A stretch of DNA of 64,000 nucleotides, counting the filler, from Asterionella formosa (taxonomy: Eukaryota), in assembly GCA_002256025.1 (NCBI GenBank). It is 17 parts of 17 records of this genome, joined end to end, with 100 filler letters (N's around TTAATTAATTAA, not from the genome) between each part and the next. Parts side by side here need not be neighbours in the genome. Positions count along the whole stretch, not along the records: positions 37,402 to 39,363 come from NKIB01000757.1; 16 more parts are not named here. One strand, 5' to 3'. This document shows positions 5,675 to 57,899 of the stretch, piece after piece (positions within the stretch are counted from its first letter, which is position 1; the number at the start of each line of letters is the position of its first letter). The notes below the pieces were generated by a model. It was given only the letters and a program-made list of their open reading frames with translations. It was not told the origin of the DNA and did no database searches. The position numbers were made by a program, and so were the translations under genes.

Positions 5675-5914
5675 GCATATATATAGCTATAGCAAGGAAA
5701 AACGACATGACAAGGAACATGATGGCTGGTTGTTGAGGATACCGGTATGGTATGTGATATGCTTCAATCCATATCACAAATCATATCATAGTGATGTACA
5801 TATGAACGCATCCGTATACTTAGATCCTATCCACCGTATAATACTATCATATTAACTGTTGGCTTTTACTGTATACATTAGAAGTCGAATTTATATATTA
5901 AGTAACATACTTTA

Positions 5915-5945: not shown

Positions 5946-7058
5946 CTATGATGTATTGATAACACTTGTGTACATATTTTATCATATTTTATTATCATTT
6001 TATTAATTTAACATGATCATATTTTGATCAAAATTATATCATAAACATTTTAAAAAATCATAATAGTTCTATGATCAATGTATCATTGCTATGTGATATA
6101 CTTTATTCAATATTACGTATCATACTTTGGTGATGTATGCATCGATGTAACTCTATTGTGATATCACATTATCATCTTATCAATCATGATGAGATTATTG
6201 GGAACTGTTTTCTGCATTGTACTTTGGAAAATGATATTATTACACGCACTTTTGTTGCTAAGTCACTCCTGTAATGTACACAAGTCGACAGTGCACATAC
6301 ACACACGCTAACCAGGTTTGAGGCAACGGACAGTGGTCCCAACGAGCGAATGACGATACCACGGGTACAAATTTTTCCAGCGGCAAACCGCAATGATGAA
6401 GGAAACTTGTCCCTCTATTGATGAGGATGACACGGACACCGACTTTTCCAGGAGCAAACAACAATGAAGAGAGCCAGGCCACTTGTCGCTCTATTGATGG
6501 TAACAAAGATGCGGACAAGTTCAACAGTGAATAAAAGAACAACATACAAATGAAAACAATAACAAAGATGCGGACAAGTTCAACAGTGAATACAAGAACA
6601 ACATATCAATGAAAATAAGTCGGCAGTGTGTGTACGCACACGCCAAGCAGATTTGAGGCAATGGACAGTTCCACCCGGACAGTTCCAACAAGCAAATGAC
6701 GATATGGATATCAAATATTTCCTACGAGCAACCAACAATAAAGTGAGCCACTTGCTTTCGATCTCTTGATGGCATCAAAGATGCGGACAAGTTCAATAGT
6801 AAAGACAAGTACAGCATGCCAAATGCAGAAACGAGCGACATGAAAAAGAAATTGTAATTAGAATCATTCCATAACTATAGCTATGTGGACAGTAGTCTGT
6901 TACATTTTCGTATCTCCTTCTATGCTGAATCTCAATAGTAGATGTAGTATCATGTGAGAATTGAAAATGTCAACGAGAACAAGTAGAATGTGTTTGGTTA
7001 CGGGATGATTGGCGAAATTGTCATGCTGAAGTCGTCGAAACGGATTTACTTTGTGCGC
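5675..7058 (+). repeat. Dispersed ~1.4-kb non-coding repeat R1, copy 1
   Basis: Colinear with 42086-43422 and with 38260-38863 (inverted). It has an AT-rich 5' half and internally repeated modules such as GATGCGGACAAGTTCAA and TTTGAGGCAACGGACA. Confidence 0.9.
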
Positions 7059-12569: not shown

Positions 12570-13245
12570 ACCACCGGTAAGCATGATGTCCCTACCGGTG
12601 GTCCGTTTGACACCTGGTAGGTTGTACCAGGTACCTCATAGTAGCTGAAAGATGTATGCTCAACAGTTCAGTTCCCTGGTATGTGCCGGTAACTGTGCGT
12701 AACATCAATGATGACAAATTAAAAAAAAATTTGAAAACGCAGTAAGAGTTGTACCAGCTGCGTGTTTCTATAAAAAAGCAATTCTGTATGTACACAGACG
12801 AATCTTGTTCCAGTCGCGGCAAATTTAAATGTATAATCAGCCGCCCAGCAGCCAGCCTTGCGGGAATGCGTGCCCAAAATTTGTTAATATCTGGCTGGCT
12901 GTCCTCCTTACCGGTATCCTGTTCCCTGGCTGACGACAGGACCATGGTACTGTACGAGCATGAGCTACCTGGTACTCCTACTACCGGTATACTGCCAGGG
13001 AGTACTGGTGCATGGTAGACTCCATGGTAGCTACCAGGTACCTGGTACCAGGTACTTGTACCTGGAACTCCCAGGTCCCCTGGTGATATAAACCTTGTAC
13101 GGTACCGGTACCAACTGGTACCAGTACCGAGTACCTGGTACCTTGTACCATCCTCAGAGGATACAATTATAAGCTACTGTTCCTGATAGTATCATAGTGT
13201 ATGATACTCCTGCATAGTAATTATAGCCGCTGGTATACCGGTACA
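12570..13245. repeat. Cluster of TACC(A/T)GGTA / TACCGGTA motifs (GGTACC-rich low-complexity tract)
   Basis: Dense runs such as CTACCAGGTACCTGGTACCAGGTAC at ~13030-13055. Similar clusters lie at 15985-16530, 26985-27012, 32120-32165 and 49500-49560. Confidence 0.85.
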
Positions 13246-15984: not shown

Positions 15985-16530
15985 TACCGGTACCGGTAGT
16001 CTATCAGGACTGGTAGACTACTACCTGGTACCTTTTTCCTAGGGAGTGCATCTGGTATCGGGGGTCATAGGAACCGTCATACAGGGTACCAGCTACTAGG
16101 TAGGGTACAAGATACCTTATGGCTGACGGTATCTGGTACCTGGTACCAGCAAGTTGCGGTCATTTTGGTTAAATAGACAATTTAATCTGAGATAAAGAAA
16201 GCTAAAGCTTTAGATGAGCAAAATTACCGGTACCAACCACTTGGAGGTCCTGGTACCTGGTACCAGGGTACCAGTACCAGGTACTTGTCCTTGCAACAAC
16301 TGGTACCAGGTACCAGGTACATGCCATCCTTTCTGCCTGTATCATATGATACATATGCTACCGAAGGTAAATGATACATATGTGTATAGCGATACATATG
16401 CTTTCCGGTAGCTACCGGTAGCTCCCTATTACCGGTATATATCCTCCATCATGTTGCTTGTCAGCATATCGATTGTAGAATTCTAACAAACTCATTTCAA
16501 CTACCAGGTACCCCCGGTACCTGGTACCGG
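15985..16530. repeat. Second GGTACC-rich cluster, in the divergent promoter region between PAF1 and the next gene
   Basis: Repeated TACCGGTA, TACCTGGTA and TACCAGGTA units, e.g. 16250-16285 and 16300-16320. Confidence 0.85.
16146..16247. mobile_element. Diverged copy of a ~105-bp MITE-like element
   Basis: TA|CCAGCAAGTTGCGGTCATTT...AATTACCG aligns with the reverse complement of 49556-49662. Confidence 0.6.
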
Positions 16531-16632
16531 AATACCTCACAACCACACTTCATTTCCGTCCATTCTCACCAAGCAGCACGACGAGCTCACATTCCAAAAA
16601 AAATGCGATCGACACATAAACTAGGGATTAAT

Positions 16633-17679: not shown

Positions 17680-17752
17680 TAGATCCAGTAGTGACAATTT
17701 TGCACTTTCTTGTTCATTAAAGCGTGACAGAAGTAGATACGTTCACTCGATA

Positions 17753-18460: not shown

Positions 18461-18862
18461 CGTGGCGAAGCCATACTAAAAAATGACGACCAAGCACTCG
18501 GCTTTTGTCCTTGCATTGGAACAATGAATTAATTAAATAAAAAATGATTAAGACGTAGGGCGCGCTCTGATAATAAAAAATTATTACATCATGTGTATTA
18601 TTACACAAATCGTTGTACCCATAACCCCAAAATTTGTGTTGGTGTTGACCAAATTTTTTACAGTTATAAATAACAGTGCATTATATAAAAAGATGTTTAG
18701 GCATGAATGACTATATAGAATTTCCCGGAATATTTCAAGACTTGCTTGCTCATACTCAAAATGGCTTGCTCTTTCCAAAATAGGTATGCATGTTGCATAT
18801 CGTTACATATCAATCAACCTCCTCAATACATCGATTGTCATCGCTTTTAGATTTCGACCCCC

Positions 18863-20136: not shown

Positions 20137-20210
20137 CCTTAAATTAATTCATTCTAATATAATATGAAAGAAATGGTGGTAAATAATCATGAATGAATAA
20201 TTTCTTTGAA

Positions 20211-21394
20211 TTACATGGCATATGTATTAGCATTCCTATGCAAATAGGGCATATACACTGAAGTAATTTGGTTCTGACCAACTTTGATAGCACGAAAGAT
20301 GTAGAGCAATACAATTATTTGGAGAATTAATTTTCTCTCACCTTTTTCTTCATAACGAAATTTGTCTTTGATTCTCGGAAATGATCCCTGAAGGCATCGC
20401 ATTCCCCATTCCGACAGCTGTCGGATTGAGGTGGCTTGGCGATTCATACCAAATCTTTGTCGAGGATTACCATTTGCAACAACATTATTTTGATGCGATT
20501 TCAACGTTGCATTTGATTTCTTAGATGCAAATGCTGAATCCACGACTACTTTTTTACCTGTATCCCTGTAAACTGTTTCAATCTGATCATAGATTGATGA
20601 CCAAATTGCCATGGTGGATTCATGTAGAACACCAGGTGCATTGAAATATGAGCAGCAAATTTTGCCATCAGGCGAAAAAAGGAACAAGTTTGTCACATAG
20701 TGTTCATGAGTCCATCCATTGTAGAAGTTGTTCTGCTGTGTTTCATTTCCAGCCCATTGCAGGGTCAGTTTCAGACGATCCATTGATCCCCAAAAATTTG
20801 TTATAAGTGGGTATTTCTGATTGATCATTGTTGCAAACAAGGTGGCTTCGTCTGCAGTACTAGGCAGTCTCACTATGGCATCTTCATGTGTCAGCAGTAC
20901 TTTTAGCTACAATCATTTGCCTTGAAAACCTCAACCAAACACTCAAAGAACCATGCTGAGTGAATCCGAAAATAATCTGAAGAATCATGTAGGAACCACG
21001 AGTCCTGGTCCATGCTAAACCAAGCGCTAGACAACTGATGGAACAGAGGTAGCTATCTTTGCCGACCTTTCTTGGTTGTTGAATTTCTAACAATTAAATT
21101 CTTTATTTTTCCTATAGGGAGTAAAGGAATAAAAGCAAGGTTTGAACAGCAGCTGGTGTAGGAGCTCGAAAGAAACATGGTCAAACCCACACAAGGTAAT
21201 CAGAGCATCATCATGCTTGCTGTTGAAAAAAGTCCAGAATGGACTTGATAATGGATGCTGTAGTGCTGCATGGCGACGAATTTTGCCACTTCGGCTCTTC
21301 TTCTGACCTCATCAACAGTCAAACTTTCCCAGAACGATGGCTTCTTATTTACTGGTGGATAGCACATTGCTAACAGTAGCAACGTAATCATAAT

Positions 21395-21434
<40 letters not shown>

Positions 21435-21457
21435 GGAGATGAGATGAAAGTCGACAT
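20211..21457 (-). pseudogene. Harbinger transposase (DDE_Tnp_4-like), frameshifted
   Basis: Motifs WGSMDRLK, FYNGWTHEHY, NAPGVLHES, VVVDSAF and RQLSEWGM..LQGSFPR. The upstream fragments are in other frames. A poly-Asp N-terminus is encoded by (CAT)n at ~21396-21433. Confidence 0.85.
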
Positions 21458-21739
21458 GGTAAGTGACTGACGATGATGAATGTATAGAACTCCTGCATAT
21501 AATGAACAAGAGGCGGCATAGTAGCATACAAGAGGATGCATCGATATGAAAAATTAACTGCTGAAAATTATAGTTAAAAATATATCTAATGTCAGAGAAG
21601 TAATCTAAAATATCTCTATTATCAGAGCGCAAGGACAATATTATGTAGCAGATCACCAGAATAATTTGTGTTATAATACACACATGATATAATAATTTTT
21701 TAATATCAGAGCGCGCCCATTAAAAAAATTATAATACTA

Positions 21740-22200
21740 CCGTGGTTATACCGGCAATACCCCGCTCCAGTCATCGTCATGACATTTGGGTACTTCTAAG
21801 TAATTTTTCAGGCTCTAAGTAATCATTTCTTAAGTAATTTTGACTTATGGGCAATATGGGGCACATCGAATTTTTCGGCAATAAATATGATATTGCAGAT
21901 CAACAATCAGATTGGTAATCCTACCTATCAATTTTCTTCAGGCAACTTTGTAAATGTTGATGAGATTAACATCAATTTTGACATGTTTAGATCAAGGACT
22001 TTGGCAAACCACAGTGAAAGGACAATTAGGCTTCAAACAATAGGGAACTCAAATCGCTACACCTCTATTTAGGTGTGACAATGAGTTGTGATAACAAGTT
22101 GCCACTATTTATTGTATTTCTAGGAACAAGAGATGGACGCATTGCCAGGCAATTGCAATTATGATAGAAACGTTACCTTTTCTATAAAGATCCCTGTGCT
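21740..22200 (+). mobile_element. pogo/Tigger-like (DDE_1) transposase remnant with a possible TA|CCGT terminus
   Basis: Translation NFVNVDEININFDM..RTL...ERTIRLQTIGNSNR.T...VTMS...KLPLFIVF.G..DGRIAR (with a frameshift) matches the pogo first-Asp region. Confidence 0.6.
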
Positions 22201-24196: not shown

Positions 24197-24991
24197 GGTC
24201 GTCGATTTCGAATTGTTTCGAGCAACGAAACTCTTGGCTTGCCGTACGGGCCGCTCTATATATTTAGATTTCAAGGCAGCCTGCGGATGCGAGGATACAG
24301 TGACGACCTTGAACTCCTGCGCACTTGGATCGCCACGCACTACATGCTGTACTTTCTGAGTGTGGAGCGAGGGACAGGCCGTACCTGTTCCCTACGCACA
24401 CTGCAATACCACTGCTTAAGACGCACTGGGAGGTAAACCGGCATATCCATTGATGAATGATAGTAAGTACCGGTATGATGTTGAAGCAAAACGGACGCCA
24501 GGAATGTGGCAGTACTAATATACCGGTGTACCGTACTGGATTTTTGGGATCCATAAAACAACTTAGAATATGTATATTCATAATAATTTACATACACATA
24601 TACAGAACACCGATGTACGTTTTCTAGTTGTTGTGCGTCTGTGTAACGGTAGTCGTACAAATTTAAAATGAGTTAAAACGTAGAATACCGGTATGCATAT
24701 ACCGGTAGGTGTATCAAACGTACAAATAAATAATAGCAGCCAACAAGGAGAAGAAAATCAATGTCATGATCTGTCATACCGGTATATATCTAAAGTGCCA
24801 ACATCAATGATGCGCATCTCGATGCTTGCATGACTCCTACCGGTAATAACAATCATTGGTCAAAAGCTCTCCTGTTGATTCGATCATCTCGTCTACCGGT
24901 AGACGCTCAAGGAGACATAACGTTAGACAGCTACCGGTATTGGTGGCGCCTAGCTAGCAGAGAATACTTCGTTTTCTCTACCTAAACAACG

Positions 24992-25658: not shown

Positions 25659-26882
25659 CTAAAATTCTAAATCTGTTCCTTCGAGAGGCTTATCATGTTG
25701 TGAGTTGTTCAGACGTACCTTGAGAGTCAACAAGACTCGGCACCCGAAAATGTCTTGCAAATCTCGTTGTGCTGCCTCTCTAATCCGTCCTAATGTTAGG
25801 CCACTCGTCCCCAAAACCAACCTTTGATGGCTCTTGGATCGAACCACAAGATCTTGGTCGATTTGGAGTGCTTTCTCGCCCCTGCGCTCATGCATCAAAA
25901 AAACCTGATTGACTTGCTTGACTTGATGAGGTACTTCCCTATGCAGATTCCGGTAAATCTTTTCCCGGAGGATTTCTTCAACACGTTCAATGTCCGACAT
26001 GGACGTTGATTTGTTTGCATCGATCACCCACTGATGACTAGGAGTGGCACGGTCCAATAGATACGTGAGGAGCTCGTCTGTGCCCTCTTTTTCCAACGAA
26101 GAGATATAAAAAATATCTGGAAAGTGCTCTGCCATTGTCTCCGCGGTGGCCTTCTCGCCCGACTTGACTTGAAATCCATCATCAGAAATTATAATTTCGC
26201 CTTTCATCGCCTTTGTTCCTTCCAACAAGACTGCCTCTGCGATTTGGTAAACTTCCTCTGCCACTTGCAGTAAATCACTCTTTGGATTCACCAAATCAAC
26301 CTTATTGAGTACAATAGCAAACTTGTCAGGTGTAGCCTGTGGAGGAGGGATAATGTCGTCATCGAAATCAAGGGTCGCTTCGACTCGTCCTAGCGTCTGA
26401 GTCGACCTCATCATTAACGTGACAAGGGCTTCCCTAAGATCATCTGTTATTCGTCTCGCAGCATCAATCACCAGCAAAGTAAAGTCGACATGTTGCATCT
26501 CATCCTTTGCCGACACCATGAGATCTCGCATGAGGCCTTCTTGTTTGGCATTGAGTGTGTTTAGGAAACCGGGCGTGTCGACAAACACTAGTTGGGTCTT
26601 GTCTATGGTGCGTGCCCCGAGAATTCCTTCTCGAGTTGTATGACGCTTACGCGAGACCGCGGCCACGGCTGAGTTGATCAGTACATTGAGGAGCTGGGAT
26701 TTGCCAGCGTTGGGAGCCCCTACAATGGCAATATCGAGGCGCTTCTTGTCCGTTGGTGGGAGGGCTCGGCTCTCTGTCGATGATATGGGCGGCGCCGACG
26801 AGAAGAGCCTACTAATCCTCGTTGTCTGAAAAGATGCCGTATGACAGAAAAGTCGATGTGATCGGATCATTGGAGACAACAT
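25659..26882 (-). CDS. era: Era-family GTPase, probably organellar (mitochondrial-type presequence)
   Basis: G1 GAPNAGKS, G2 HTTR, G3 DTPG and G4 NKVD, then EILREKI...REVPH and a KH-like C-terminus. The start is chosen at MLSPMIRSHR; the ORF stays open up to 26972. Confidence 0.92.
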   Translation of the reverse strand: MLSPMIRSHRLFCHTASFQTTRISRLFSSAPPISSTESRALPPTDKKRLDIAIVGAPNAGKSQLLNVLINSAVAAVSRKRHTTREGILGARTIDKTQLVFVDTPGFLNTLNAKQEGLMRDLMVSAKDEMQHVDFTLLVIDAARRITDDLREALVTLMMRSTQTLGRVEATLDFDDDIIPPPQATPDKFAIVLNKVDLVNPKSDLLQVAEEVYQIAEAVLLEGTKAMKGEIIISDDGFQVKSGEKATAETMAEHFPDIFYISSLEKEGTDELLTYLLDRATPSHQWVIDANKSTSMSDIERVEEILREKIYRNLHREVPHQVKQVNQVFLMHERRGEKALQIDQDLVVRSKSHQRLVLGTSGLTLGRIREAAQRDLQDIFGCRVLLTLKVRLNNSQHDKPLEGTDLEF

Positions 26883-27261
26883 CTTTTTTAATGGTTGGTT
26901 GATGGTGTTGATGTTTGCTTGATCATACCTTTGTCGTCTTTTCTTTATTATTTTCATGAATACATAATTCATGGTATTTTACAACTGGTACCTGGTACCT
27001 GGTACCTGGTACAGGAACTCCTATCACCCGTGAAAAAACTGTGTTTGATTAGTCTGACTCAATATTGCTTTTAACCCTAGTTTGAGCTAGGCAGGGTTCT
27101 ATCTAATGCAGGAACCAAACTAACAGTAATGGTGTATAATTTTTCATGTCAGACATCCGTTTACAAATACTTGAATCATTCTTGTGTTTGTGCACATACA
27201 TGTATTCGTGGGAGGGACGGGAAGCTTGAAACACATCGAGACTCCTCATTCCGCTTCATAT

Positions 27262-28995: not shown

Positions 28996-29930
28996 TCGAA
29001 TTCTTCTTGGGCTTCTCAATCAGTACATAGCAGAAACAGTAGAACTTGATGCTTTTCCTTCATCAAACAAAAGGAGACTTGACATGAACTGGAGATGGCT
29101 GGCTGGGAAAACATGTTCACAACAGATCACGACCGACGGGTGGACTTGCAACGATGATAACTGTACTAGAAAGGCAATGGGACTCGCGTGCGTGACGAAG
29201 CAGCTGGTCTGAATGCGAACTCATAGTCTACAGTAGCTAAACGAGGCGTTTGATCTCCTATGCATACGGCTGAGTGCTCAAACATTTCCTTGGTCGATCA
29301 TAATTGCATCTATCACACTTCTCATCTTTTCTGCCTGCTTCCGCCATCAACTGATGTGCATGCAGCAATCCACTCTGTGACATCATGTTTGTTGATGAGA
29401 CGCATCACACGTGTATGCATTGTACATACAACATGCTTATACGCACAATTTCATATTACAACGCATACATACCATTAGGCACATACATAAGGTAACAGGT
29501 ACTGTCAAGATTTGTTACTGCGTGCATATTAGCTCAGTCGAACTAATCAATCTTGAAAAATATTCCAGCCAAAATCCCGTATTGAAATGCCGTGAGAATT
29601 GGAACAGCATTGATTGCCAAGAACTATATCAGCAAACCAGGGTAAAAATTCGAATGGAGAATGTTCTAAGTAATCAATATTTCAATGAAGGAAAGGTATA
29701 TATGTAATGCAGATAAGATTGAATATTCACAATTGCTCTGACAAGTGAGTGGAGTTGAGGTGTCAGTTGAGAATTGAATGTCTAACAGCAGCCACAATGA
29801 ATATCTTTATACAAATTTGGAAAGAGAACCTTAATAATTGGTCATGTGAATGATTAAAAGATAGATCAAAAAAGCTCACAATAAGGTGGGATTAGAGCAG
29901 AAGGTTTTAATACACTGAGCTTGTCTACTA

Positions 29931-31111
29931 CATCTAAGCCGCGTATTACGTGAAGTGACCATCACGTAAATAAGCCTAGTTGATTTTGAATGGATCACAT
30001 GAATTAGTTGAATACATCAAAATGCTTACTTGAATATATCTATATATTATCTGAATACATCACGTTAATTATTTGATCAGAGTATCATGCATGCATTCCT
30101 GATCATCACTATATTACATGATCACCTTCACATAATTATTTGAAATACTTCACATAATTATTTGAAATACTTCAATTAATTCTGTAATTCAGTTCACATT
30201 GCCTTAAATTTTTGTTCACATAATTCTATAATATAGTTCACATAATTTTTACGTATTTTAAAAGTACTATCAAATAATGTTGATTACTAATTCAACAACC
30301 GGTATTTCACATTACATGGGAAACAAATCTCGATATGCAATCAAACAAAGCTGTTCTATCAGAATGGCATCTTCAGTTTTGAGAAGGCAGGCATTATGAG
30401 ACATCTGCAAGGACATTGCAAGACAAGGAGAAGCCATTCATTCAGAAGGGGGAAATTATTCACTCTTGAACAGGCATCATTCTACGAAGTTGCAACATGA
30501 ATGCATCCTCACACACTGATTTCCTTCTTGTACTTGAAATGACTTCTTCATTGACCTGCAGAGATTTTCAGAACAACAGTGTGTCAGTAATGTATATGAT
30601 AGAACTAGCAACAGCAGAAAGCAACACACAGTTCATTCCAGACCTCATTGTCCCTGCCTGTTGTCAACAACAATGCGTGAGCTGACAAGCCATACTAGCA
30701 TTTAGGTACACAACAAGAACACACTCACCATTCAACTGTATTGCAGAGTTCTTTTATTTGAGTCGAGGATTCAATTGACATTGCAGCAACCTATGCAGTT
30801 ACAGAAACAATGAGAAGGAATGATTTGTTAGCAAGTAGTCATGTTACATTGAAACAACGACACGCAATTCCATCGTATCCTCTTGCTTCACTTACCACAA
30901 ATCAATGCAACTGATGCATAAGTCTGTAATAGTAACTTGTCAGTAAATTCTTGAATAAGTAAGTTTCGGGTATCCAATGTTGTCGAATAAAACTTACCGG
31001 TACATTTTTGTCATCTTAACTTTGAGAGAAGGTAAACGTTTTGTCAGCTTTGTTCCAACAGAAGTGAATAGGTCCAACGAGCGACAAGAGCACTTACGCA
31101 ATTTGGTTTTG
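29931..31111. mobile_element. Second 'CATCTAAG'-family transposon end; the element extends right to the contig end
   Basis: TA|CATCTAAGCCGCG... is an inverted copy of 180-522. Internal sequence near 30770 (TCAATTGACATTGCAGCAA) also recurs at positions 26-44. Confidence 0.7.
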
Positions 31112-31211: not shown

Positions 31212-32459
31212 GGTGTTACTTTCCCCTTTGCTAAGGGAGTGATAGTGAGGAGGGCAGTATTTTATGTGACTTTTCACTGCTGTTTTCGAAAGGATCCCAC
31301 ACCAACCCGCAGTACCTGTTGTAGAAAATCAAATCAAATGTAATGTAATGTAATGTAATGAAAATGAATTCATTCTCGATCCACAAACTACCACCAGCAT
31401 GATGAAATAGCTTGGTGCTTTGATGAAATTTTGACGTGTTCATTTGCAATGCAGTAGCTTATTCAGAGTCACACGTATAGTCTTCCTTATTTCCATCACA
31501 TGTTGGACAAGTCCAATAATCCTGCGATGCTTGAGTCCCTCTGACAAAATTTGCTTCCATTTCTTTGCCACGACTCTGGGACTTAGAAAACTCTCTCTTG
31601 GGATTTTGACAGAGATAAATAAAAAGTCTTCCTTCATTCCACAACAGCATGGACAACACCAACCATTCTTCATCGTTCGAATCTGAAATAAATCGGCTTC
31701 TATTTCAAGACCACATATCTGGTTATTGGACATGAAATCAGGGATTGGGATTAAAAACATCGTTCATTGGGGTTTTCAACGAGATCAACAGGAAGGAGGA
31801 GAGATGCATTAGCGGCTGCAGCAAAACCCGAAAACGATGAAGGAATTCGCAAAGCATTTCATGTGACGAACCTTGCGAAAGCCACGCTCTCTAAAGCACT
31901 TGTACTTGCCAGGTCCGGTCGGGGTCGGCACGTGATAAATACCATACAATCTTTCCCCAGGCTGTAGTTTGTAATATTGCATTCTTGCGTTGATTATTAA
32001 CAGAACAAAGCAATTGTGAACTTTTGTAACGATGCATACAATGAAATAATTATGATGCTTTTGTAACACATTTGACGAGCGATGTGCTCAATCGATGCGA
32101 ATGCTGAACTATTCTTCGCGTGTGGTACCAGGTACCGTACCAGGTACCGTACCTGGTACCACTGGCACTATACCGTGTATGTGACCCATTGTTACCAAAC
32201 CTGGAGGGAGTTGGGAGTTCCGGGAAAGTCCGAATATTGCGAATATTTGTCTGTAGATGCAGATCGGGTACGGTATATACCGGTAATCAAAAGATATAAC
32301 TGTACATAATATAAATACAGTATATAGGAGTATACCCGAAGTTATTTGGTACACGTATTATGCCTTGTATCGGTACCCCTGGTACCAGGTAACTAAATAT
32401 ATACATACGTAGAGCGCAGCCTCTCAACATGAATATGGATACAGGTTCGTGGTACCAGG

Positions 32460-36772: not shown

Positions 36773-37301
36773 TACTGGAAATTCAATTAGGTTAAGACTG
36801 TAACACCTTTCCATGTTGTGGAACAGACCAATTACTTGGGAAAGAGTATAGAACTAGATAATATCCATATCTCTGTCTGGAAACAATAACAAACACCATG
36901 GAACGGTCACCATATCATGTTGTAGCAAAACACACATATTTATAGTGACTGTTTCCACTAGTACTGGAAATTCAATTAGGTTACAACTGTAACACCTTTC
37001 CATGTTGTGGAACAGACCAATTACTTGGGAAAGAGTATAGAACTAGATAATATCCATATCTCTGTCTGGAAACAATAACAAACACCATGGAACGGTCACC
37101 ATATCATGTTGTAGCAAAACACACATATTTATAGTGACTGTTTCCACTAGTACTGGAAATTCAATTAGGTTACAACTGTAACACCTTTCCATGTTGTGGA
37201 ACAGACCAATTACTTGGGAAAGAGTATAGAACTAGATAATATCCATATCTCTGTCTGGAAACAATAACAAACACCATGGAACGGTCACCATATCATGTTG
37301 T
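36773..37301. repeat. 189-bp near-perfect tandem repeat, ~2.8 copies running into the contig end
   Basis: TACTGGAAATTCAATTAGG at 36773, 36962 and 37151. Confidence 0.95.
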
Positions 37302-38259: not shown

Positions 38260-38863
38260 ATCCTCATCAATAGAGAGACAAGTTCTTTCGTTGGAAAAAT
38301 TGGTACCCGTGGTATCATCATTCGCTCGTGGGAACCACTGTCCGTTGCCTCAAACCTGATTAGCGTGTGAGTACCGGCATGTGCACTGTCGACTTTAGTA
38401 CATTACAGGCGGAGTGACTTCGCTACTAAATTGCGTGATATAATAATATACCCTGTAGCACGATGCAGAATACAGTTGCTTCCCAATCATCTCATCATGT
38501 TTGATAAGATGATACCAGGTACCAGGTACTGTGATATCATGATAAGGTTACATCGATTCATACATCACCAAAGTATGATAAGTAATATTGAATAAAGTAC
38601 ATCACAGAACTATGATACACTGATCATAAAATTATGATGATTTTATGTAATAATTATGATATTTTTGTGATCAAAATATGATTATGTTAAAATAATACAA
38701 TGATAATAAAATACGATAAAATATATACGCAAGTGTTACCAAGACATCATAGAAAATAAATCAAGCAATCATAAAGTATGTTAATTAATATATGTGTTTG
38801 TCGTTTAATGTATACAGTTAAAGTCAACAGTTAGCTAATATGATAGTATTATACAGTGGATAG
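38260..38863 (-). repeat. Repeat R1, copy 2 (partial, inverted, cut by the Copia LTR)
   Basis: Reverse complement aligns with ~42232-42833 and ~5828-6428. Confidence 0.9.
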
Positions 38864-39463: not shown

Positions 39464-41232
39464 AGAAAAAGAAGGAAAGGATGCTGAGTAGCTGACAATA
39501 AGGAATTGAATCCGTTATTTCGTTAAGAAACAGCTGTTGCATATTTCAACCTTGCATGTCGCCGTAGTGAGTCAAAATTGAGATGTGCCACAATGGCCAT
39601 CTCCGTTTCGGAGCAGCTACAAATAGTCTACAGCAATAACTCGAGCAAGTACAATATAGAAAAAGAAGGAAAGGATGCTGAGTAGCTGACAATAAGGAAT
39701 TGAATCCGTTATTTTGTTAAGAAACAGCTGTTGCATATTTTAACATTCAATGCATGTCGCCGTAGTGAGTCAAAATTGAGATGTGCAGCAATGGCCATCT
39801 CCGTTTCGGAGCAGCTACAAATAGTCTACAGCAATAACTCTAGCAAGTACAATATAGAAAAAGAAGGAAAGGATGCTGAGTAGCTGACAATAAGGAATTG
39901 AATCCGTTATTTCGTTAAGAAACAGCTGTTGCATATTTCAACCTTGCATGTCGCCGTAGTGAGTCAAAATTGAGATGTGCTGCAATGGCCATCTCCGTTT
40001 CGGAGCAGCAACAAATAGTCTACAGCGATAACTCTAGCAATTACAATAAAGAAAAAGAAGGAAAGGATGCTGAGTAGCTGACAATAAGGAATTGAATCCG
40101 TTATTTCGTTAAGAAACAGCTGTTGCATATTTCAACCTTGCATGTCGCCGTAGTGAGTCAAAATTGAGATGTGCTGCAATGGCCTTCTCCGTTTCGGAGC
40201 AGCTACAAATAGTCTACAGCGATAACTCTAGCAAGTACCATAAAGAAAAAGAAGGAAAGGATGCTGAGTAGCTGACAATAAGGAATTGAATCCGTTATTT
40301 AGTTAAGAAACAGCTGTTGCATATTTCAACCTTGCATGTCGCCGTAGTGAGTCAAAATTGAGATGTGCCTCAATGGCCATCTCCGTTTCGGAGCAGCTAC
40401 AAATAGTCTACAGCTATAAGTCTAGCAAGTACAATATAGAAAAAGAAGGAAAGGATGCTGAGTAGCTGACAATAAGGAATTGAATCCGTTATTTTGTTAA
40501 GAAACAGCTGTTGCATACTTTAACATTCAATGCATGTCGCCGTAGTGAGTCAAAATTGAGATGTGCTGCAATGGCCATCTCCGTTTCGGAGCAGCTACAA
40601 ATAGTCTACAGCAATAAGTCTAGCAATTACCATAAAGAAAAAGAAGGAAAGGATGCTGAGTAGCTGACAATAAGGAATTGAATCCGTTATTTCGTTAAGA
40701 AACAGCTGTTGCATATTTCAACCTTGCATGTCGCCGTAGTGAGTCAAAATTGAGATGTGCTGCAATGGCCTTCTCCGTTTCGGAGCAGCTACAAATAGTC
40801 TACAGCGATAACTCTAGCAATTACCATAAAGAAAAAGAAGGAAAGGATGCTGAGTAGCTGACAATAAGGAATTGAATCCGTTATTTCGTTAAGAAACAGC
40901 TGTTGCATATTTCAACCTTGCATGTCGCCGTAGTGAGTCAAAATTGAGATGTGCAGCAATGGCCTTCTCCGTTTCGGAGCAGCTACAAATAGTCTACAGC
41001 GATAACTCTAGCAAGTACCATAAAGAAAAAGAAGGAAAGGATGCTGAGTAGCTGACAATAAGGAATTGAATCCGTTATTTCGTTAAGAAGCAGCTGTTGC
41101 ATATTTCAACCTTGCATGTCGCCGTAGTGAGTCAAAATTGAGATGTGCCACAATGGCCATCTCCGTTTCGGAGCAGCTACAAATAGTCTACAGCAATAAG
41201 TCGAGCAAGTACAATATAGAAAAAGAAGGAAA
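39464..41232. repeat. 194/198-bp satellite array, ~9 copies
   Basis: ATGCTGAGTAGC at 39481, 39675, 39873, 40067, 40261, 40455, 40653, 40847 and 41041. The same unit occurs at 53270-53783 and 53884-53960. Confidence 0.98.
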
Positions 41233-41879
41233 GAATGAGTTGCTGTCAACAATTGAATTAGTAAATCAGTAATATTAGTAAAAATTTTGGTTCCTAGTAG
41301 TTCATTTGCCCTTTGACAATAGTCAATTTGTCAAAATTGAAATTCATTTTCACTAAACTGGAGTGAAGTTCAATTGTCTTGCAACTTCTTTCATTGACCG
41401 TTTGAAATACTCATATTCAATCCTNNNNNNNNNNNNNNNNNNNNNNNNNNNNNNNNNNNNNNNNNNNNTTAATTAATTAANNNNNNNNNNNNNNNNNNNN
41501 NNNNNNNNNNNNNNNNNNNNNNNNCCCGCCGTATCAAACGGTTTCGAATAAGAGGAGTTGGAACGAAGAGATGTGACAAGAACTGACCTGACACTTCTGT
41601 CCGACTTGGTCGATGGATGTCTCCCGCTTATTTGTGACTTCCTGCGCAACAAAACTTGCCACAACGACGAATCAAACGGTTTCGAATATGAGGAGTGGTT
41701 GGAACGAAGAGACTTGTCATAAACATGACACTTCTGTCCGAGTCGGTCGATGGAGCAAAAGAAACGACACCAGCGTCCGGTTATTTGCTAATGGCTGTAC
41801 TTGATTAAAAACAAATAACCATTTTGTTAGTAACTATTTATGAGTAAATAAAAATTCTTACTTCCATCTTTCCCCATAG

Positions 41880-42087: not shown

Positions 42088-43422
42088 ATATATATAGCTA
42101 AAACAAGGAAAGACGACACAACAATGAACGTGATGGCTGGTTGTTGAGGATACCTGTATGTGATATGCATCAATCCATATCACAAATCATATTATAGTGA
42201 TGTACATATCAACGCATCCGTATACTTAGATCCTATCCACTGTATAATACTATCATATTAAGTGTTGACTTTAACTGTATATATTAAACGACAAACATAT
42301 ATATTAATTAACATACTTTATAACTGCTTGATTTATATTCTGTGATGTATCAATAACACTTGCGTACATATTTTATCGTATTTTATTGTCATTGTACAAT
42401 TTTTACATGATCATATTTTGATCAAAATTATATCAAAAAACATTTTATAAAATCATCATAATTTTATGATGAATGTATCATAGCTATGTTAGGTGCTTTA
42501 TTCAATATTACGTATCATACTTCGGTGATGTATGCATCGATTTAACCTTATCATGATATCACAGTATCATCTTATCAATCATGATGAGATGATTGGGAAG
42601 CAACTGTATTCTGCATCGTGCTACAGGGTATCATATATTATTATATCACGCAATTTAGTAGCGAAGTCACTCCGCCTGTAATGTACTAAAGTCGACAGTG
42701 CACATACCGGGTACCAGTACTCAAACGCTAATCAGGTTTGAGGCAACGGACAGGTTCCAACGAGCGAATTGATGATACCACGAGTACCAATTTTTCCAAC
42801 GAAAGAAGCAACTTGTCTCTCTATTGATGAGGATGACACGGACATGGACACCGACTTTTTCAGGAGCAAACAACAATGAAGAGACCCACTTCGTCTGCGT
42901 CGCTCTATTGATGGAAAAAAAGATGCGGACAAGTTCAACAGTGAATACAAAGAACAACATACCATTGAAAACAAGTCGACAGTGTGTGCACGCACACGCC
43001 AAGCAAGTTTGAGGCAACGGACAATTCCAACAAGCAAATGACGATACAGATATCAAATTCTTCCTACGAGCAAACAACAATGAAAAGAGCCACTTGCTTT
43101 CGCTCTCTTGCTTGATGGTATCAAAGATGCGGACAAGTTCAATAGTTAATTAAAGTACAGTATGCCAAATGCAGAAACGAGCGAGCGATATGAAAATGAA
43201 ATGCGTTCTAATCAGAATCATTCTATAACTATAGCTATGTGGACAGTAGTCTGTTACGCACATTTTCGTATCTCTTTCTATGCTGAATCGAAATTGTAGA
43301 TGTAGTATCATGTGAGAATTGAAAATTTCAACAAGAACAAGTACCGGTAGAATGTGTCTGTTTACGGGTTGATTGGCGAGATTGTCATGCTGAAGTGGAC
43401 GAAACGGATATACTTTGTGCGC
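42086..43422 (+). repeat. Repeat R1, copy 3
   Basis: Colinear with 5675-7058 from GCATATATATAGCT to TTTGTGCGC. Confidence 0.9.
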
Positions 43423-43585: not shown

Positions 43586-45545
43586 CCAGGACAAATCTGA
43601 AACCCATCTATGAATTTCTCACAGCAGCAACCACAAACACACTCCCAGGTGAATTGAATCTCCGATCTGGCTATGCTGGTAATGACTCCTGAGAGAGAGG
43701 TTCCGGTTTTTTTAATCCAAGCGCCATAGTAAACTTTCAACCAGAGACAATCTGCTTTTGAGGGACGCTCGAGGGAGACCGGGTCATTGGATTTCATAAA
43801 AGCTGGGTGGAGAAGGACCCGTACTCTGTAGGATGGGTCAGACAGAAATGTAGTAGGTTTGGGTTAAGTCAGTGGAAGGCATCCTTTGTCCGATTTTTTA
43901 ATCCTTTCAAAGTTCTTGGCCATTGGAAGGATGGCTGTAGTTTCAATAACTCCTTATGGGACCACTTAGAAACTGCTCGAATAGTAGAATCATCATCACA
44001 GATGATTGTAGAGTAGATAACAATGTTTTTCTTTACTGCATCAATCATCATTTCCACACCAGCATCTGGTTCAATTGCTTTCGAACTACCAGTTACATGA
44101 TTCTTTGGACAAACATGTTCCTTCATTGGTTTCTTTTACCATATAGCCCTGTTGCAAACATTACAGACCTTAGATTTCACTCTGTAGTCTAGTATCTTTT
44201 TCGAATACCCGCCAATACAAAAAGCATGTCCACTTACAGAGTTGTAATTATTCCCGCTGGACCGCTGCTGCTGCCAGCCGATATCGTAGTAACTAACAGT
44301 GAGTCGAGGCATATTCAGTACAGGCAAGCAATCCGTACCATTCAAACTGTTCCACCACTGAAAATCACGTCCTTTGTCAGCCCAGTCTCCTCGTATATGC
44401 ACATTGAGTGTCCGATATATTTCCTCCTTACATGCCTCTTTCATTACAAGAACGGTTGAAGTAACTTTAGCGTTTCCTACCAGTTCCTCTACTGCACAAA
44501 AGTTACCTTGCTTGAGTAGACCAAAATCCAAAGGTAAGTGGAAGATTCATTGCGGAGCAGATGATATCTGCATCTGCCAGTCCCATTCCGGCTTTGTGAC
44601 AACCCAAAATAAACTGTTTGTAGATAAAAAATTGTTTTGCTTCTATTGCGTTATTTTTTATCTCATCATTTATTTCTCCATCGCTGTTGCTTCTTGCAGA
44701 TTTGAGTTTAGAAATCAGTTTCTGACAGGTCAAACAGGAGACTTTGAATTCGCTTGCCAAGCCGTAATTTTTGGTAGAGACAAGAATCAACGGTTGTTTC
44801 ATTGTTGAAATCGGAAAGTCAAACACATCCTGCTCCAGAAATGCTTCACATTGCTGTTCAATGGACAGTTTTTGATGTCTATTTGATGTAAAGTAAGTTA
44901 CAAAGTCACGAAGTAATTTTTTGCAATCTTCTTTTACAAATTTATTAACACAGCTTTTGCAATACATACGTCTGCAAATAAAAAGTATCATGCATATAGG
45001 ATCAAGGGTATCGTACGCTAAGTGGCACAGGATTTTCGTATATATGATAATTTTTGGATCAAAATATGATCAAGGTATCTTGTAACTATGATGATTTATT
45101 AATATTTTACCGACCTTAAAGTATAATGATAATAAGAACATTATCATCACACAATGTATATAAACGGATCAACAGCATTTCCCATCAATATCATAAACCT
45201 TCTCATATTATTTTCACTTCTTGTGATTGCCCGATGTAAATTATAAGTACAACGTATCCTAAAACCAGCTCAACTCTATGCTATCATGTGAATTGTTTCA
45301 TCGTAAATCTATCGTAAACATGATCATAATTCTAATCACAAGCATTGTTCAAAATAGATTGAAATGGATCGTAATTTAACTATCAAGTTAAGCAATGCTA
45401 TCTATTAATCTACATGCCAGCGACCCAACGTTTCTCTCTCTACTCAGCTCAATGTATATTGTTCCTGTCTCGCCAATTTCTTCCTCTTTTCTGAATCGTG
45501 TGCGAGACAGTGCCTTACTGATGCTGCGTCTATTTCCCTGCTGTA
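43586..45545 (-). mobile_element. Disrupted PF20700-type DDE transposase (annotated Mutator-like; probably Kolobok-related), copy A
   Basis: LTVSYYDIGWQQQRSSG...SGHAFCIGG..KKILDY..KSKVC..C, HVCPKNH..GSSKA.E and IICDDDST. Reverse complement of 55942-57899. Confidence 0.8.
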
Positions 45546-45645: not shown

Positions 45646-45986
45646 TGATGCTGCCCTGCAAAAGTGTAAAACGTAAAGTAATAAGAAAATAATTTTTGTA
45701 GTATTAACGGAGTAAAAATAAACACGGTTTGGGGGGAAAATATATACATGTACAGATAGAAAAATATGCACTGTAAGCCACCGCTATGCAATAATCTTAG
45801 TGACTTTGGAAAAATTATTTCTTCATGGCTAGATACACTGAATCAAAACTGATTCCTTAATAGTATAGCAGAGAGCATTGTCTAACATAAGCTTTGTACT
45901 TGCGTCAAGTTTTGATCGTTGAATTACATAAATATTTTTAGTCGAAAGATAGAGTAAAATAGCGGTGGCTTACAGTTTTTAAGTGG
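45646..45986. mobile_element. Right end of a CCACTTAAAAACTG-terminated element
   Basis: Homologous to ~49160-49490. Ends CAGTTTTTAAGTGG|TA and is followed by CCAGG TA CCGG TA. Confidence 0.8.
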
Positions 45987-46230
45987 TACCAGGTACCGGT
46001 ATGTATTCCATCACAATTGCATCTTTCCTGAAGGCTGCCCTTTGATCGAGAGGGGTGTCAGTGTGTCGAAATCCAGCTAAACTGTCAGTCCTACTGGTGC
46101 ATAAGTACACACAGTTACAGTACCAGGTACCCCGTCAACAAGTTTTTTGCTTAAGCAAAGACTATGCTAAATATCTCGATTACCGCACCTTCCAGTCGTA
46201 GTCCTAATTTTGCATTCGTTAGCTGTTTTA

Positions 46231-48430: not shown

Positions 48431-48757
48431 GGTGGATTGGCAAAAGTTAAGTTAACACGTAGTTTGTTAAAACAACAAAATCATCTACTAGTGACAGCAC
48501 TTCTAAGTACTATTGGAGACAATCAATGCTCGTGATGTGTTGATGCACGGCATACCTACCCGGTAGTTATCATAATATTGCTTTTATGAATTTAACTGGC
48601 GCGATAATTAGCCAGGCTGACGAGTTACTACCGGTACCAGGTATTATGTCTACGTCTTTTATCAGCACCTTTAAGTACCACCTACGGTTATGGTGGTACT
48701 ATGTTTTTCCCTATTATTTTCTGTCGCAGCTCTGTATGTCCCAGATCTCACCTGGTA

Positions 48758-49490
48758 CCACTTAAAAACTGTGCACAAGCCACCACTATGATGACTTTTG
48801 AACGGTAAGCCACCGCTAAGCACACAGAGTAAACGCACGGTTTGAACTTGGTTTGCAGATACATTCATTATTGTCACAAAGGAGTTGTTCAGATTTATAT
48901 AGCGAGTAAATACATACAAACTTGTTTTGTTGCATTGTGTAACAACTCAAAGGTTGCTGTTGATGCGAAATTGTAAAAAATGGAAAATTTCATGTTTACT
49001 CTATTGAGCTATCATTGTCTTTTTCTACGAGTGCACTTGTATATGGAGAAATTCATTCCATAGAATTACTTTAGTATTATTAAATGTGTGTACGATGTCA
49101 TTGTGCTTTCGAATACATTATGCATCAAAAGAATTCGGTGATGATGCAAATGCAAAAAGCATACTGCACAAAAAGGTAAAGTAACACGAAAATAATTTCT
49201 GTAGTATAAACGGAGTAAAAATAATCATGGTTTGGGGGGAAAATATACTCATGTATGGCTAGAAAAATATTCACTGTAAGCCACTTCTATGCAACAATCT
49301 TAATGACTTTAAAAAAATTAGATCTTCATGGCTTTATACACTGAATCGAAACTGATTACTTATTCGTTGAGTAGAGTGCATTGTGTTACATACACTTCGT
49401 ACTTGCATCATGTTTCGATTGTAATATTACTTGAATATTTTTAAGTCGGAAGATGGAGTAATATAATGGTGGCTTACAGTTTTTAAGTCG
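48758..49490. mobile_element. 733-bp non-autonomous TIR element flanked by TA
   Basis: TA|CCACTTAAAAACTGT..AAGCCACC ... GGTGGCTTACAGTTTTTAAGTCG|TA. Internal TAAGCCAC sub-repeats. No coding capacity. Confidence 0.85.
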
Positions 49491-49555
49491 TACCCTTTGG
49501 ACGAGGTACCATGGTACCTGGTATATCAGATCTTCGGAGTACGTCGTACCAGGTA

Positions 49556-52720: not shown

Positions 52721-53783
52721 CATCTAAGACGCCGTTTACGGCACTTTTTCGAATTTATGTGTAAAGTGACGTATTTATGCTACTTTTTTAAAATATTATG
52801 TTACTTTTCTAAAATATTATGTTACTTTTTTGAAATATTATGCTACTTTTTCCCTAATTTATTCGGGTTAAACAAAAATTTATTTCACTTATCGAATAAT
52901 TATGTGATCACACCAATAATTATGTGTGTTCGTGACAATATATGTTGACCAACTAGCCATCGCAACAGTTTAAAAGCGAAATTATGCTGCTCTGCCGCAA
53001 TATTATGCTGCTTTCACCATATAATGAACGAAAGAGTCGCCAATTCCGATACACTTATTATTTTTTCCGCTCCGACATATCACTTTGATCTGAACTGGCA
53101 AAGAATAACACATGCAAGAGGAAGATTCACACTGTAGAATTCAGCACACGTAGTAGTAGTAGTTGATGTTGTAGACACATAATTAAGTCATTGTTGATTG
53201 TAGAGATTACAATAGCCTGCCAGATTGGAAATAAAGCACTGTTGGTCCTCGTTGAGCATCGTTTAGCATTGCATGTCGCCGTAGCTAGTGAGTCAAAATT
53301 GAGATGCGCCGCAATGGCCTTCTCCGTTTCGGAGCAGCTACAAATAGTCTGCAGCAATAAGTCGAGCAAGTACAATATAGAAAAAGAAGGAAAGGATGCT
53401 GAGTAGCTGACAATAAGGAATTGAATCCGTTATTTCGTTAAGAAACAGCTGTTGCATATTTCAACCTTGGATGTCGCCGTAGTGAGTCAAAATTGAGATG
53501 TGCCGCAATGGCCTTCTCCGTTTCGGAGCAGCTACAAATAGTCTACAGCGATAACTCTAGCAAGTACAATATAGAAAAAGAAGGAAAGGATGCTGAGTAG
53601 CTGACAATAAGGAATTGAATCCGTTATTTCGTTCAGAAACAGCTGTTGCATATTTTAACCTTGCATGTCGCCGTAGTGAGTCAAAATTGAGATGTGCCGC
53701 AATGGCCTTCTCCGTTTCGGAGCAGCTACAAATAGTCTACAGCAATAAGTCGAGCAAGTACAATATAGAAATAGAAGGAAAGG
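52721..53783. mobile_element. 'CATCTAAG' terminus with 21-bp subterminal repeats leading into the 194-bp satellite
   Basis: TA|CATCTAAGACGCC. AAATATTATGTTACTTTT units at ~52775-52850. The satellite starts at ~53270 and runs to the contig end. Confidence 0.7.
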
Positions 53784-55941: not shown

Positions 55942-57899
55942 TACAGCAGGGAAATAGACGCAGCATCAGTAAGGCACTGTCTCGCACACGATTCAGAAAA
56001 GAGGAAGAAATTGGCGAGACAGGAACAATATACATTGAGCTGAGTAGAGAGAGAAACGTTGGGTCGCTCGCATGTAGATTAATAGATAGCATTGCTTAAC
56101 TTGATAGTTAAATTACGATCCATTTCAATCTATTTTGAACAATGCTTGTGATTAGAATTATGATCATGTTTAAGATAGATTTACGATGAAACAATTCACA
56201 TGATAGCATAGAGTTGAGCTGGTTTTTAGGATACGTTGTAAATATAATTTACATCGGGCAATCACAAGAAGTGAAAATAATATGAGAAGGTTTATGATAT
56301 TGATGGGAAATGCTGTTGATCAGTTTATATACATTGTGTGATGATAATTTTTTTATTATCATTATACTTTAAGGTCGGTAAAATATTAATAAATCATCAT
56401 AGTTACAAGATACCTTGATCATATTTTGATCCAAAAATTATCATAAATACGAAAATCCTGTGCCACTTAGCGTACGATACCCTTGATCCTATATGCATGA
56501 TACTTTTTATTTGCAGACGTATGTATTGCAAAAAATGTGTTAATAAATTTGTAAAAGAAGATTGCAAAAAATTACTTCGTGACTTTGTAACTTACTTTAC
56601 ATCAAATAGACAACAAAAACTGTCCATTGAACAGCAATGTGAAGCATTTCTGGAGCAGGATGTGTTTGACTTTCCGATTTCAACAATGAAACAACCGTTG
56701 ATTCTTGTCTCTACCAAAAATTACGGCTTAGCAAGCGAATTCAAAGTCTCCTGTTTGACCTGTCAGAAACTGATTTCTAAACTCAAATCTGCAAGAAGCA
56801 ACAGCGATGGAGAAATAAATGATGTGATAAAAAATAACGCAATAGAAGCAAAACAATTTTTTATCTACAAACAGTTTATTTTGGGTTGTCACAAAGCCGG
56901 AATGGGACTGGCAGATGCAGATATCATCTGCTCCGCAATGAATCTTCCACTTACCTTTGGATTTTGGTCTACTCAAGCAAGGTAACTTTTGTGCAGTAGA
57001 GGAACTGGTAGGAAACGCTAAAGTTACTTCAACCGTTCTTGTAATGAAAGAGGCGTGTAAGGAGGAAATATATCGGACACTCAATGTGCATAAACGAGGA
57101 GACTGGGCTGACAAAGGACGTGATTTTCAGTGGTGGAACAGTTTGAATGGTACGGATTGCTTGCCTGTACTGAATATGCCTTGACTCACTGTTAGTTACT
57201 ACGATATCGGCTGGCAGCAGCAGCGGTCCAGCGGGAATAAGTACAACTCTGTAAGTGGACATGCTTTTTGTATTGGCGGCTACACGAAAAAGATACTAGA
57301 CTACAGAGTGAAATCTAAGGTCTGTAATGTGTGCGACAGGGCTATACGGTACAAGAAACCAATCAAGGAACATGTTTGTCCCAAGAATCATGTAACTGGT
57401 AGTTCGAAAGCAATGGAACCAGATGCTGGTGTAGAAATGATGATTGATGCAGTAATGAAAAACAATGTTATCTACTCTACAATCATCTGTGATGATGATT
57501 CTACTATTCGAGCTGTTTCTAAGTGGTCCTATAAGGAGTTATTGAAACTACAGCCATCCTTCCAATGGCCAAGAACATTGAAAGGATTAAAAAAATCGGA
57601 CAAAGGATGCCTTCCACTGACTGTACCCGAACCTACATTTCTGTCTGACCCATCCCACAGAGTACGGGTCCTTCTCCACCCAGCTTTTATGAAATCCAAT
57701 GACCCGGTCTCCCTCGAGCGTCCCTCAAAAGCAGATTGTCTCTGGTTGAAAGTTTACTATGGCGCTTGGATTAAAAAACCGGAACCTCTCTCTCAGGAGT
57801 CATTACCAGCATAGCCAGATCGGAGATTCAATTCACCTGGGAGTGTGTTTGTGGTTGCTGCTGTGAGAAATTCATAGATGGGTTTCAGATTTGTCCTGG
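55942..57899 (+). mobile_element. Disrupted PF20700-type DDE transposase, copy B
   Basis: Same motifs as copy A plus FLSDPSHRVR. Stop at ~57182 and a frameshift near 56960-56985. Confidence 0.8.

Follow-up and report, generated by a model that had tools for sequence, protein, structure and literature searches.

The window analysed here is a 64,000-nucleotide stretch of DNA from Asterionella formosa. It has a G+C content of ~40%, and its long open reading frames (ORFs) are poor in introns. Positions 1-31111 are a single contig. From 31112 onward, there are 16 unplaced contigs of ~2 kb each, strung together by 16 linkers of the form N44-TTAATTAATTAA-N44, which lie between 31112 and 62112 at a spacing of ~2060 bases. 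Since the second half of the window consists of joined unplaced contigs, distances and neighbourhoods in it are not real. The ORF products include a PHO4 transporter, a Paf1-like protein, an Era-like GTPase and a lipase. The transposable elements include Copia, a Gypsy-type integrase, PIF/Harbinger and Mutator-like elements. Positions 12000-21999 are matched by sequencing runs labelled as algae, freshwater and lake-water metagenome.

The window also holds several repeats. A 3.1-kb PIF/Harbinger element at 18558-21718 has 39-nt terminal inverted repeats that are 95% complementary and a DDE_Tnp_4 ORF at 20211-20906. In four runs, it is covered several hundred times more deeply than the flanking genes and thus belongs to a very high-copy family. 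High-copy repeats occupy 18000-22000 and 29100-31100, and the depth of the examined stretch peaks at 29800-31100 (millions vs. ~800). The gene-bearing part of the contig is flanked by an inverted repeat pair, 140-525 and 29928-30247, that is 94.5% identical over 254 bases and contains 22-base tandem sub-repeats. On the unplaced contigs, there is a 194-base satellite at 39464-41237 (9.1 copies) and at 53286-53783 (2.6 copies), with 95-96% matches, and a 189-base tandem repeat at 36773-37301. Two further unplaced contigs, 43586-45545 and 55942-57899, are 97.8% identical in opposite orientation. Both contain fragments of Mutator-like transposases, and the pair must be either haplotigs or copies of recent origin.

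The words that stand out most in the window are short palindromes flanked by TA. With satellites masked, and counting both strands against an order-1 Markov background, TACCGGTA is observed 60 times where 0.55 are expected, and TACCWGGTA (TACCAGGTA or TACCTGGTA) is observed 32 times where 0.25 are expected. An earlier, sequence-only reading of this DNA took these motifs to be stacked footprints of transposon excision and asked for a count of this kind; the two motifs rank first by over-representation among 8-mers and 9-mers, with an excess of ~100-fold. The best 25 8-mers listed all belong to the same TA-palindrome family, except for TTAATTAA, a word found in the linkers. The string TACC(N)GG is closed directly by TA in 130 of 168 instances in the window (both strands) and in 1654 of 2032 instances in 468 kb of related loci among the matches listed. 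The units form 56 TA(CC[N]GGTA)n arrays in the window, of which 47 have a single unit, 7 have two and 2 have three. The main clusters and arrays are collected in Table 1, together with the sites at which copies of a repeat differ by such units.

Half of the window is made up of small unplaced contigs, which is the one circumstance that might suggest a library or assembly artefact as the source of the motifs. We give this explanation almost no credence. Contigs from four runs, belonging to four studies, reproduce the motif clusters, so the motifs are present in independent reads; an X2 contig that covers 11500-13473, for instance, does so with 4 differing letters and 0 gaps. In all four runs, the bins that hold arrays have 10-150 times the depth of their neighbours, which makes the arrays a genome-wide repeat and not an artefact. 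Arrays of the same kind are also found in the metagenome contigs described below. The strain contigs show gap totals of 6, 7, 13 and 15 letters over motif regions, which match the unit sizes; these are totals only and are not counted as evidence here.

Table 1. TA-flanked motif clusters, arrays and filled or bare sites, with positions counted along the whole window.
Positions	Strand	Feature	Remarks
5740..5747	+	TACCGGTA in copy A of repeat R1	copy C is 5 bases shorter, with a substitution also present; ambiguous case
6298..6299	+	bare TA in copy A	counterpart of 42705-42719
6984..6985	+	bare TA in copy A	counterpart of 43342-43349
12593..13243		cluster of ~20 units, single and arrayed	upstream of 682-aa ORF 10302-12350 (minus); depth ~12-fold that of neighbouring bins in X1
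15985..16526		cluster between divergent ORFs	Paf1-like 14131-15636 (minus) and 16390-17370 (plus)
24468..24939		seven isolated TACCGGTA	between divergent DUF1118 and PTPS ORFs
26989..27011		array TA(CCTGGTA)x3	immediately upstream of GTPase ORF 25659-26978 (minus)
32126..32391		cluster on unplaced contig	with 12-base period GTACCAGGTACC
38372..38379	-	one decayed unit TGCCGGTA in copy B	counterpart of 42705-42719; point change
38513..38528	-	filled site in copy B, TA(CCWGGTA)x2	14 additional bases missing from A and C
42565..42566	+	bare TA in copy C	counterpart of 38513-38528
42705..42719	+	filled site in copy C, TACCGGGTACCAGTA	TA-CCGGG-TA-CCAG-TA; two variant units
43342..43349	+	filled site in copy C, TACCGGTA	
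45987..46001	+	array TACCAGGTACCGGTA	closes a 320-base repeat
48557..48643		further units TACCCGGTA, TACCGGTACCAGGTA	
49490..49523	+	paralogous array with TACCATGGTA (full 3+3 junction, CCATGG)	extra CCTGG unit; 9-base filler between CC and AGG

Repeat R1 is found in three copies, of which B and C are 87% identical to each other, while A is 80-83% identical to either. Copies B and C sit on separate small contigs, so the distance between them in the window is meaningless. The sequence-only reading had described three small insertions at TA dinucleotides among these copies, and our alignment of A, B and C returns all three exactly as written, along with the decayed TGCCGGTA of copy B at 38372-38379, which that reading does not mention. 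The clearest of them is at 38513-38528, where the minus strand of copy B reads CACAG-TA-CCTGG-TA-CCTGG-TA-TCATC; copy C reads CACAG-TA-TCATC and copy A reads CACAT-TA-TCATC. Since B and C are sisters while A and C are both empty at this position, the extra bases are a gain in B. The site thus polarises as an insertion; it is the one polarised filled/empty case, and the polarity of the other R1 sites is not fixed.

R1 has 10 sites with indels of at least 5 bases. By our own count from the alignment rows, clean motif units account for 3 of the 10, with a fourth (5744) open to argument; the others comprise a TTTA microsatellite, small tandem duplications and gaps that we cannot explain. The indels at TA measure 6, 7, 13 and 14 bases in the R1 alignment and 6 and 7 bases in the metagenome alleles below, lengths that correspond to the motif minus one TA. 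A full motif opposite a gap of 6 or 7 bases forces a TA at the empty site by construction, and the independent fact is the gap length. In both sets of alignments, as had been proposed, the units arise as whole insertions that share a TA with the flank. The opposite view would be that the motif-bearing state is ancestral and that the empty sites are precise deletions between TA copies. In principle, 2-base repeats could mediate a deletion, and three of the four filled/empty cases come without an outgroup, but at 38513 the site is empty both in A, the outgroup, and in C, the sister copy, and deletion would leave the 100-fold excess of the motifs unexplained. We regard an ancestral motif state as very unlikely.

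Metagenome contigs were scanned for three consecutive CCWGG units, which returned at least 124 stretches from many projects. The locus set, drawn from the matches listed, comprises 126 loci (648 kb), three viral matches included. Among the loci of this set, 38 long ones (380 kb, G+C 42-47%) come from a second, diatom-like organism, a gene-dense, intron-poor eukaryote that is distinct from the organism of the window. Its genes encode a furin-like protease, zf-CW/PHD proteins, an EF-hand single-domain ion channel, a plastid-type sigma factor and DUF6824. Viral contigs were considered as motif carriers and set aside, as only 3 matches to a two-and-a-half-unit pattern were found, a number that we estimate to be at chance level. 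A 52.8-kb contig from a viral-contig collection (L001/L002; 40.6% G+C) has two TACCGGTA and two TACCWGGTA within 6 kb; it is filed as viral and could come from an alga or from a virus that infects algae.

Three of the metagenome loci, L045, L112 and L111, are contigs of different assemblies that represent allelic versions of a single locus and differ by 0-3 substitutions in ~1.15 kb. All 4 of the 4 indels among them are motif units. Three are gains or losses of 7 bases in or beside arrays, and one is isolated, with GG-TA-GG in one allele and GG-TACCGGTA-GG in another. Four unit indels against 0-3 substitutions indicate that the process is ongoing and outpaces point mutation at such loci. In a separate difference between L045 (~1137-1142) and L112 (alignment columns 1078-1082), CCTGGTT stands opposite CCAGGTA, so that a flip of the centre base and a change in the flanking TA fall within 5 bases; this could be a re-visited site or a conversion between units.

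Differences of whole units between the arrays of different alleles are also a feature of ordinary micro- or minisatellites, and replication slippage alone, acting on units of 6-7 bases, has to be weighed as the origin of the motifs. Adjacent CCWGG units have the same centre base in 161 of 251 cases (64%; p = 9e-6 vs. 50%), and TRF reports 7-base arrays. However, the centre base differs in the other 90 of 251, and slippage alone cannot produce such neighbours. Growth from identical tandem copies does not describe the data either: 47 of the 56 window arrays are single units, which is beyond slippage, and single units emerge at bare TA sites that offer no local template. We hold slippage as the sole process to be extremely unlikely, but the 161 same-centred pairs imply that slippage or duplication also acts. 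The earlier proposal that arrays are built one unit at a time consequently survives for the units that differ in centre base and not as a full account of the arrays, to which slippage or duplication contributes.

The placement of the arrays was counted using ORFs of at least 200 aa as gene proxies. In the second organism, there are 0.05 arrays per kb in coding sequence, 0.75 in convergent spacers, 1.49 in tandem spacers and 2.45 in divergent spacers; on the window contig, the corresponding figures are 0 in coding sequence, 2.5 in tandem spacers and 7.6 in divergent spacers. By these ORF proxies, the arrays are enriched upstream of genes. Motif density is biased to promoters, yet a large excess persists where no promoters are expected. 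This climb (0.75, 1.49 and 2.45 per kb) as more promoters adjoin the spacer, in motifs that are palindromic, speaks for an explanation by selection, in which they are sites for a dimeric transcription factor and their excess is due to function instead of mutation, as proposed for TACATGTA (M93) and TACCGGTA (M94) of Phytophthora. Excerpts of the literature lend it some precedent: TACCGGTA is given as a 'high-confidence' promoter motif in P. infestans (PMC3597505), and TACATGTA as bound by PsMyb37 (PMC11134190).

Several other properties of the motifs run against such sites. Exact insertions of 6-7 bases are found, also within repeat copies. Motif units are the chief difference between near-identical alleles (4 of 4 indels), and the paralogous arrays at 45987-46001 and 49490-49523 differ unit-wise, so positions are not conserved between alleles or paralogues. 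There are still ~0.75 arrays per kb between convergent ORFs, the spacing of the half-sites is variable (CCGG vs. CCWGG), and arrayed units overlap through their common TA. The trimmed forms, described next, have a CCA/TGG polarity that would not be expected of a symmetric site. Finally, decay is distributed over all positions: one-mismatch copies amount to ~0.35-0.4 of perfect ones, every position is affected and transitions are commonest, which looks like neutral decay of fairly young insertions. We consider selected factor sites a poor and rather improbable explanation of the motifs, though factor binding to them after their formation is possible. Going by the sequence comparisons, the motifs are a mutational product and not merely a conserved site. 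The 3.1-kb Harbinger copy at 18558-21718 is free of any TACC(N)GGTA unit, so the targeting is not uniform.

The result that weighs most lies in the trimmed forms of the motif, which carry information on the ends from which it would have been made. All words of the form TA + prefix + suffix + TA were tabulated, observed against expected, in a prefix/suffix matrix for the 38 loci (380 kb). The dominant class is CCA+GG and CC+TGG, with 505 observed for 2.1 expected; CC+G stands at 137/25.7 and CC+GG at 66/5.4. The forms with one full triplet are strongly unequal. CCA+G (TACCAGTA) occurs 184 times and CCT+G (TACCTGTA) 25 times, where 9.8 of each are expected, and this asymmetry is present in 33 of the 38 loci, with same-unit tandems at just 5 of the 184 sites. 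Likewise, CCA alone (TACCATA) is at 100/37.8 vs. 18/41 for CCT alone (TACCTTA), and CCA+TGG (TACCATGGTA) is at 12/0.6 vs. 0/0.4 for CCT+AGG (TACCTAGGTA). The GG..CC controls are flat, with no enrichment. In the window, CCA+G and CCT+G number 8 and 3. The centre base of CCWGG has no strand bias, the counts of A and T being 17 and 15 for the window, and 358 and 352 for the loci. CC+GG (60) is roughly as frequent in the window as CCWGG (32+32), while in the second organism CCWGG prevails.

Two other derivations of these forms do not fit. Random loss of one base from a symmetric palindrome predicts equal numbers where 184 and 25 are seen. The mirror model, with ends CCT...AGG, fails on CCT+G (25/9.8), CCT alone (18/41) and CCT+AGG (0/0.4). 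The asymmetry implies that CCA and TGG are retained as blocks, and the spectrum fits two joined TA-CCA-3' ends, as judged from word counts, and not a symmetric palindrome. The matrix agrees with a single element whose two ends each leave their last 2-3 nt behind, trimmed to varying extents, where the ends are deduced from the scars and not read from an element. Of the two paralogous arrays of Table 1, the first has CCGG where the second has CCATGG; such unit-wise differences look like variable end joining. The idea of footprints left by elements with CC...GG ends thus gains in that the spectrum fits a single end pair, which we refine to 5'-CCA...TGG-3', and falls short in that no TA-flanked element of this description was found in the sequences searched (see below).

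Our preferred reading, to which we assign a probability of about 0.6, is that the TA-flanked palindromes are excision repair scars of a TA-targeting cut-and-paste element of the Tc1/mariner kind with ends 5'-CCA...TGG-3'. The transposon origin of the constant ends, the superfamily and the repair route are all proposed from the scars. Insertion of the element would duplicate the target TA. On excision, the transposase would cut the 3' strand at the element end and the 5' strand 2-3 nt inside, leaving flanks that keep TA and a CC(A)-3' overhang. Joining of the overhangs would then give CC+GG (TACCGGTA), CCA+GG or CC+TGG (TACCWGGTA) and, more rarely, CCA+TGG, CCA+G and others; a one-base overlap of two CCA overhangs would give CCWGG with a random A or T at the centre. 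Each scar would bring a new TA that could be targeted again, and, together with slippage, this could build arrays with periods of 6-7 bases. Scars would accumulate in non-coding DNA, chiefly upstream of genes, and then decay through point mutation. The density is ~1 scar per kb, for which this reading would require very many excisions, a point against it, as is the uneven targeting noted for the Harbinger copy.

The donor element was sought at the level of both transposase and ends. No Tc1/mariner transposase was found in the 81 ORFs of the window, or in the 210 ORFs (130-520 aa) taken from the related metagenome loci among the matches listed (0.65 Mb). The DNA transposases met were PIF/Harbinger and Mutator-like only, with one PIF/Harbinger among the 210 locus ORFs; Copia and integrase domains were met as well. 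The target duplication of PIF/Harbinger is the 3-base TWA, which would not yield a 2-base TA, and the copy at 18558-21718 ends in GGGCGC...GCGCCC and not in CCA...TGG, so this family was dropped as the scar source. No donor with CC...GG ends and TA flanks was found in the 64-kb window or the 0.65 Mb of loci. The 38 'open' TACC(N)GG of the window have no common extension. In the loci, the extensions that do recur proved to be decayed or variant units instead of element ends, and the TACCWGGTGC and TACCWGGCAC classes proved to be arrays with a TA-to-TG or TA-to-CA transition. Scans for terminal inverted repeats returned 5 rows and 8 rows with no genuine element, the 8 rows of the TA-CC...GG-TA scan being all motif arrays, trinucleotide repeats or R1 copies. 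A hairpin-like 23-27-mer at 12593-12619, akin to two sites in L009, was found nowhere else and was dropped. The 320-base repeat (45964-45986 at its end; also 49171-49494) ends in ...AAGTGG right before TA and the scar array, and its other strand starts with CCA; no inverted partner of it was found in the window, and it was set aside as an unproven element end. Since a low-copy cut-and-paste element is easily missed in 0.7 Mb, the absence of a donor is weak evidence against the scar reading.

The second organism has another TA-flanked palindrome, TACTCGAGTA, seen 50 times where 0.5 are expected (for example, at L036 4277, L043 12623 and L075 6010). Its one-sided forms are also in excess (CTC or GAG, 169/42.5; CTC+G, 54/7.9), and a second element family, with CTC...GAG ends, would leave scars that match these words. 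The spacers of this organism are also rich in TAGTA and TACTA words (2875/659) and in TACTAGTA words (460/9.3).

With no donor or Tc1/mariner transposase found in ~0.7 Mb, it is fitting to ask if a mobile element is needed at all. Some other TA-directed enzymatic process could add the constant bases, such as a domesticated transposase or nuclease making staggered breaks at TA, or a nucleotidyltransferase of the CCA-adding type acting on the 3' ends of breaks, followed by end joining; CCA addition is a suggestion of our own. The spectrum requires two joined TA-CCA-3' ends and leaves the source of the CCA unspecified. However, this explanation needs two separate steps, a TA duplication and a constant triplet, where the known chemistry of a transposon covers both (excerpts of PMC2642840), and CCA addition does not fit the second palindrome TACTCGAGTA with its own one-sided forms, which suits a CTC...GAG family. 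We take an element-free process to be a serious but unlikely alternative to excision scars.

A literature search over a limited collection, supplements excluded, returned no report of such scars in diatoms and none in which diatoms, mariner elements and excision footprints are relevantly combined. Searching by motif string returned primers and barcodes only. Nor was a printed account found in this collection, again without supplements, of footprints that are the top over-represented words of a genome, arrayed and concentrated upstream of genes. As a tentative extension that we would not bet on, low-copy and very active mariner-type elements in diatoms, and perhaps in stramenopiles generally, would have written much of the intergenic and promoter DNA as stacked scars, supplying raw material for palindromes bound by transcription factors, including TACATGTA (CA+TG) and TACCGGTA (CC+GG) of Phytophthora. 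On that view, transposons would drive the making of both cis-regulatory sequence and simple repeats. If the scar reading itself is right, cut-and-paste transposons would shape genomes through scars as well as insertions. The scars would be dense enough to be the commonest words of non-coding DNA, would seed 6-7 base repeats and would alter promoters faster than point mutation does, as the four unit indels against 0-3 substitutions at one locus illustrate. The TA-x-TA prefix/suffix matrix would be a simple test for reading past and present element ends from any genome. The question of where oomycetes got their TA-NNNN-TA promoter motifs would be reopened, and motif-discovery work in these organisms should then handle such palindromes cautiously.

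Excision footprints of Tc1/mariner elements are textbook knowledge, and that of Sleeping Beauty, TAC(A/T)GTA, has A or T at its centre at random. Like the footprints of Mos1, Tc1, Sleeping Beauty and Osmar/Stowaway, the units described here have a duplicated TA and would derive from a donor site that keeps TA, a few terminal bases and TA; their random A/T centre parallels Sleeping Beauty. The likeness extends to the cut and the end sequence. According to excerpts of PMC2642840, the 5' break in mariner chemistry falls two or three nt within the element; a primer table there gives the Mos1 5' repeat as TA and then CCAGGTG. The trimmed CCA...TGG spectrum is the outcome to be expected of a mariner whose ends resemble the CCAGG of Mos1 and are cut 2-3 nt inside. 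Unlike these units, known scars are rare and lie at single donor sites. Here, they are the top over-represented words at ~1 per kb, stacked in arrays and concentrated upstream of genes, and their donor was not found in ~0.7 Mb.

The closest resemblance in sequence is to Phytophthora, another stramenopile. In P. infestans, TACATGTA (M93) and TACCGGTA (M94) are abundant promoter palindromes (Roy et al. 2013, excerpts of PMC3597505). Both have the TA-NNNN-TA form and are abundant upstream of genes, and M94 is the identical 8-mer. A footprint origin has been discussed there too: TACATGTA is a Tc1 footprint in C. elegans, as cited in excerpts of PMC3520976, where Seidl et al. 2012 rejected such an origin for it on grounds of its conservation and abundance. 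In the sections of these papers on which we draw, the Phytophthora motifs are reported as conserved, and TACATGTA is protein-bound, by the Myb-related factor PsMyb37 (PMC11134190), in contrast to the insertion polymorphisms and the spectrum of repair junctions seen here. A third comparison is with transposon-seeded microsatellites, in which the origin of a simple repeat is likewise tied to a DNA transposon. In these systems, of which microsatellite-associated MITEs (PMC8449440) are an example, the repeat lies within the element or grows out of its tail, whereas here the unit would be the scar itself.
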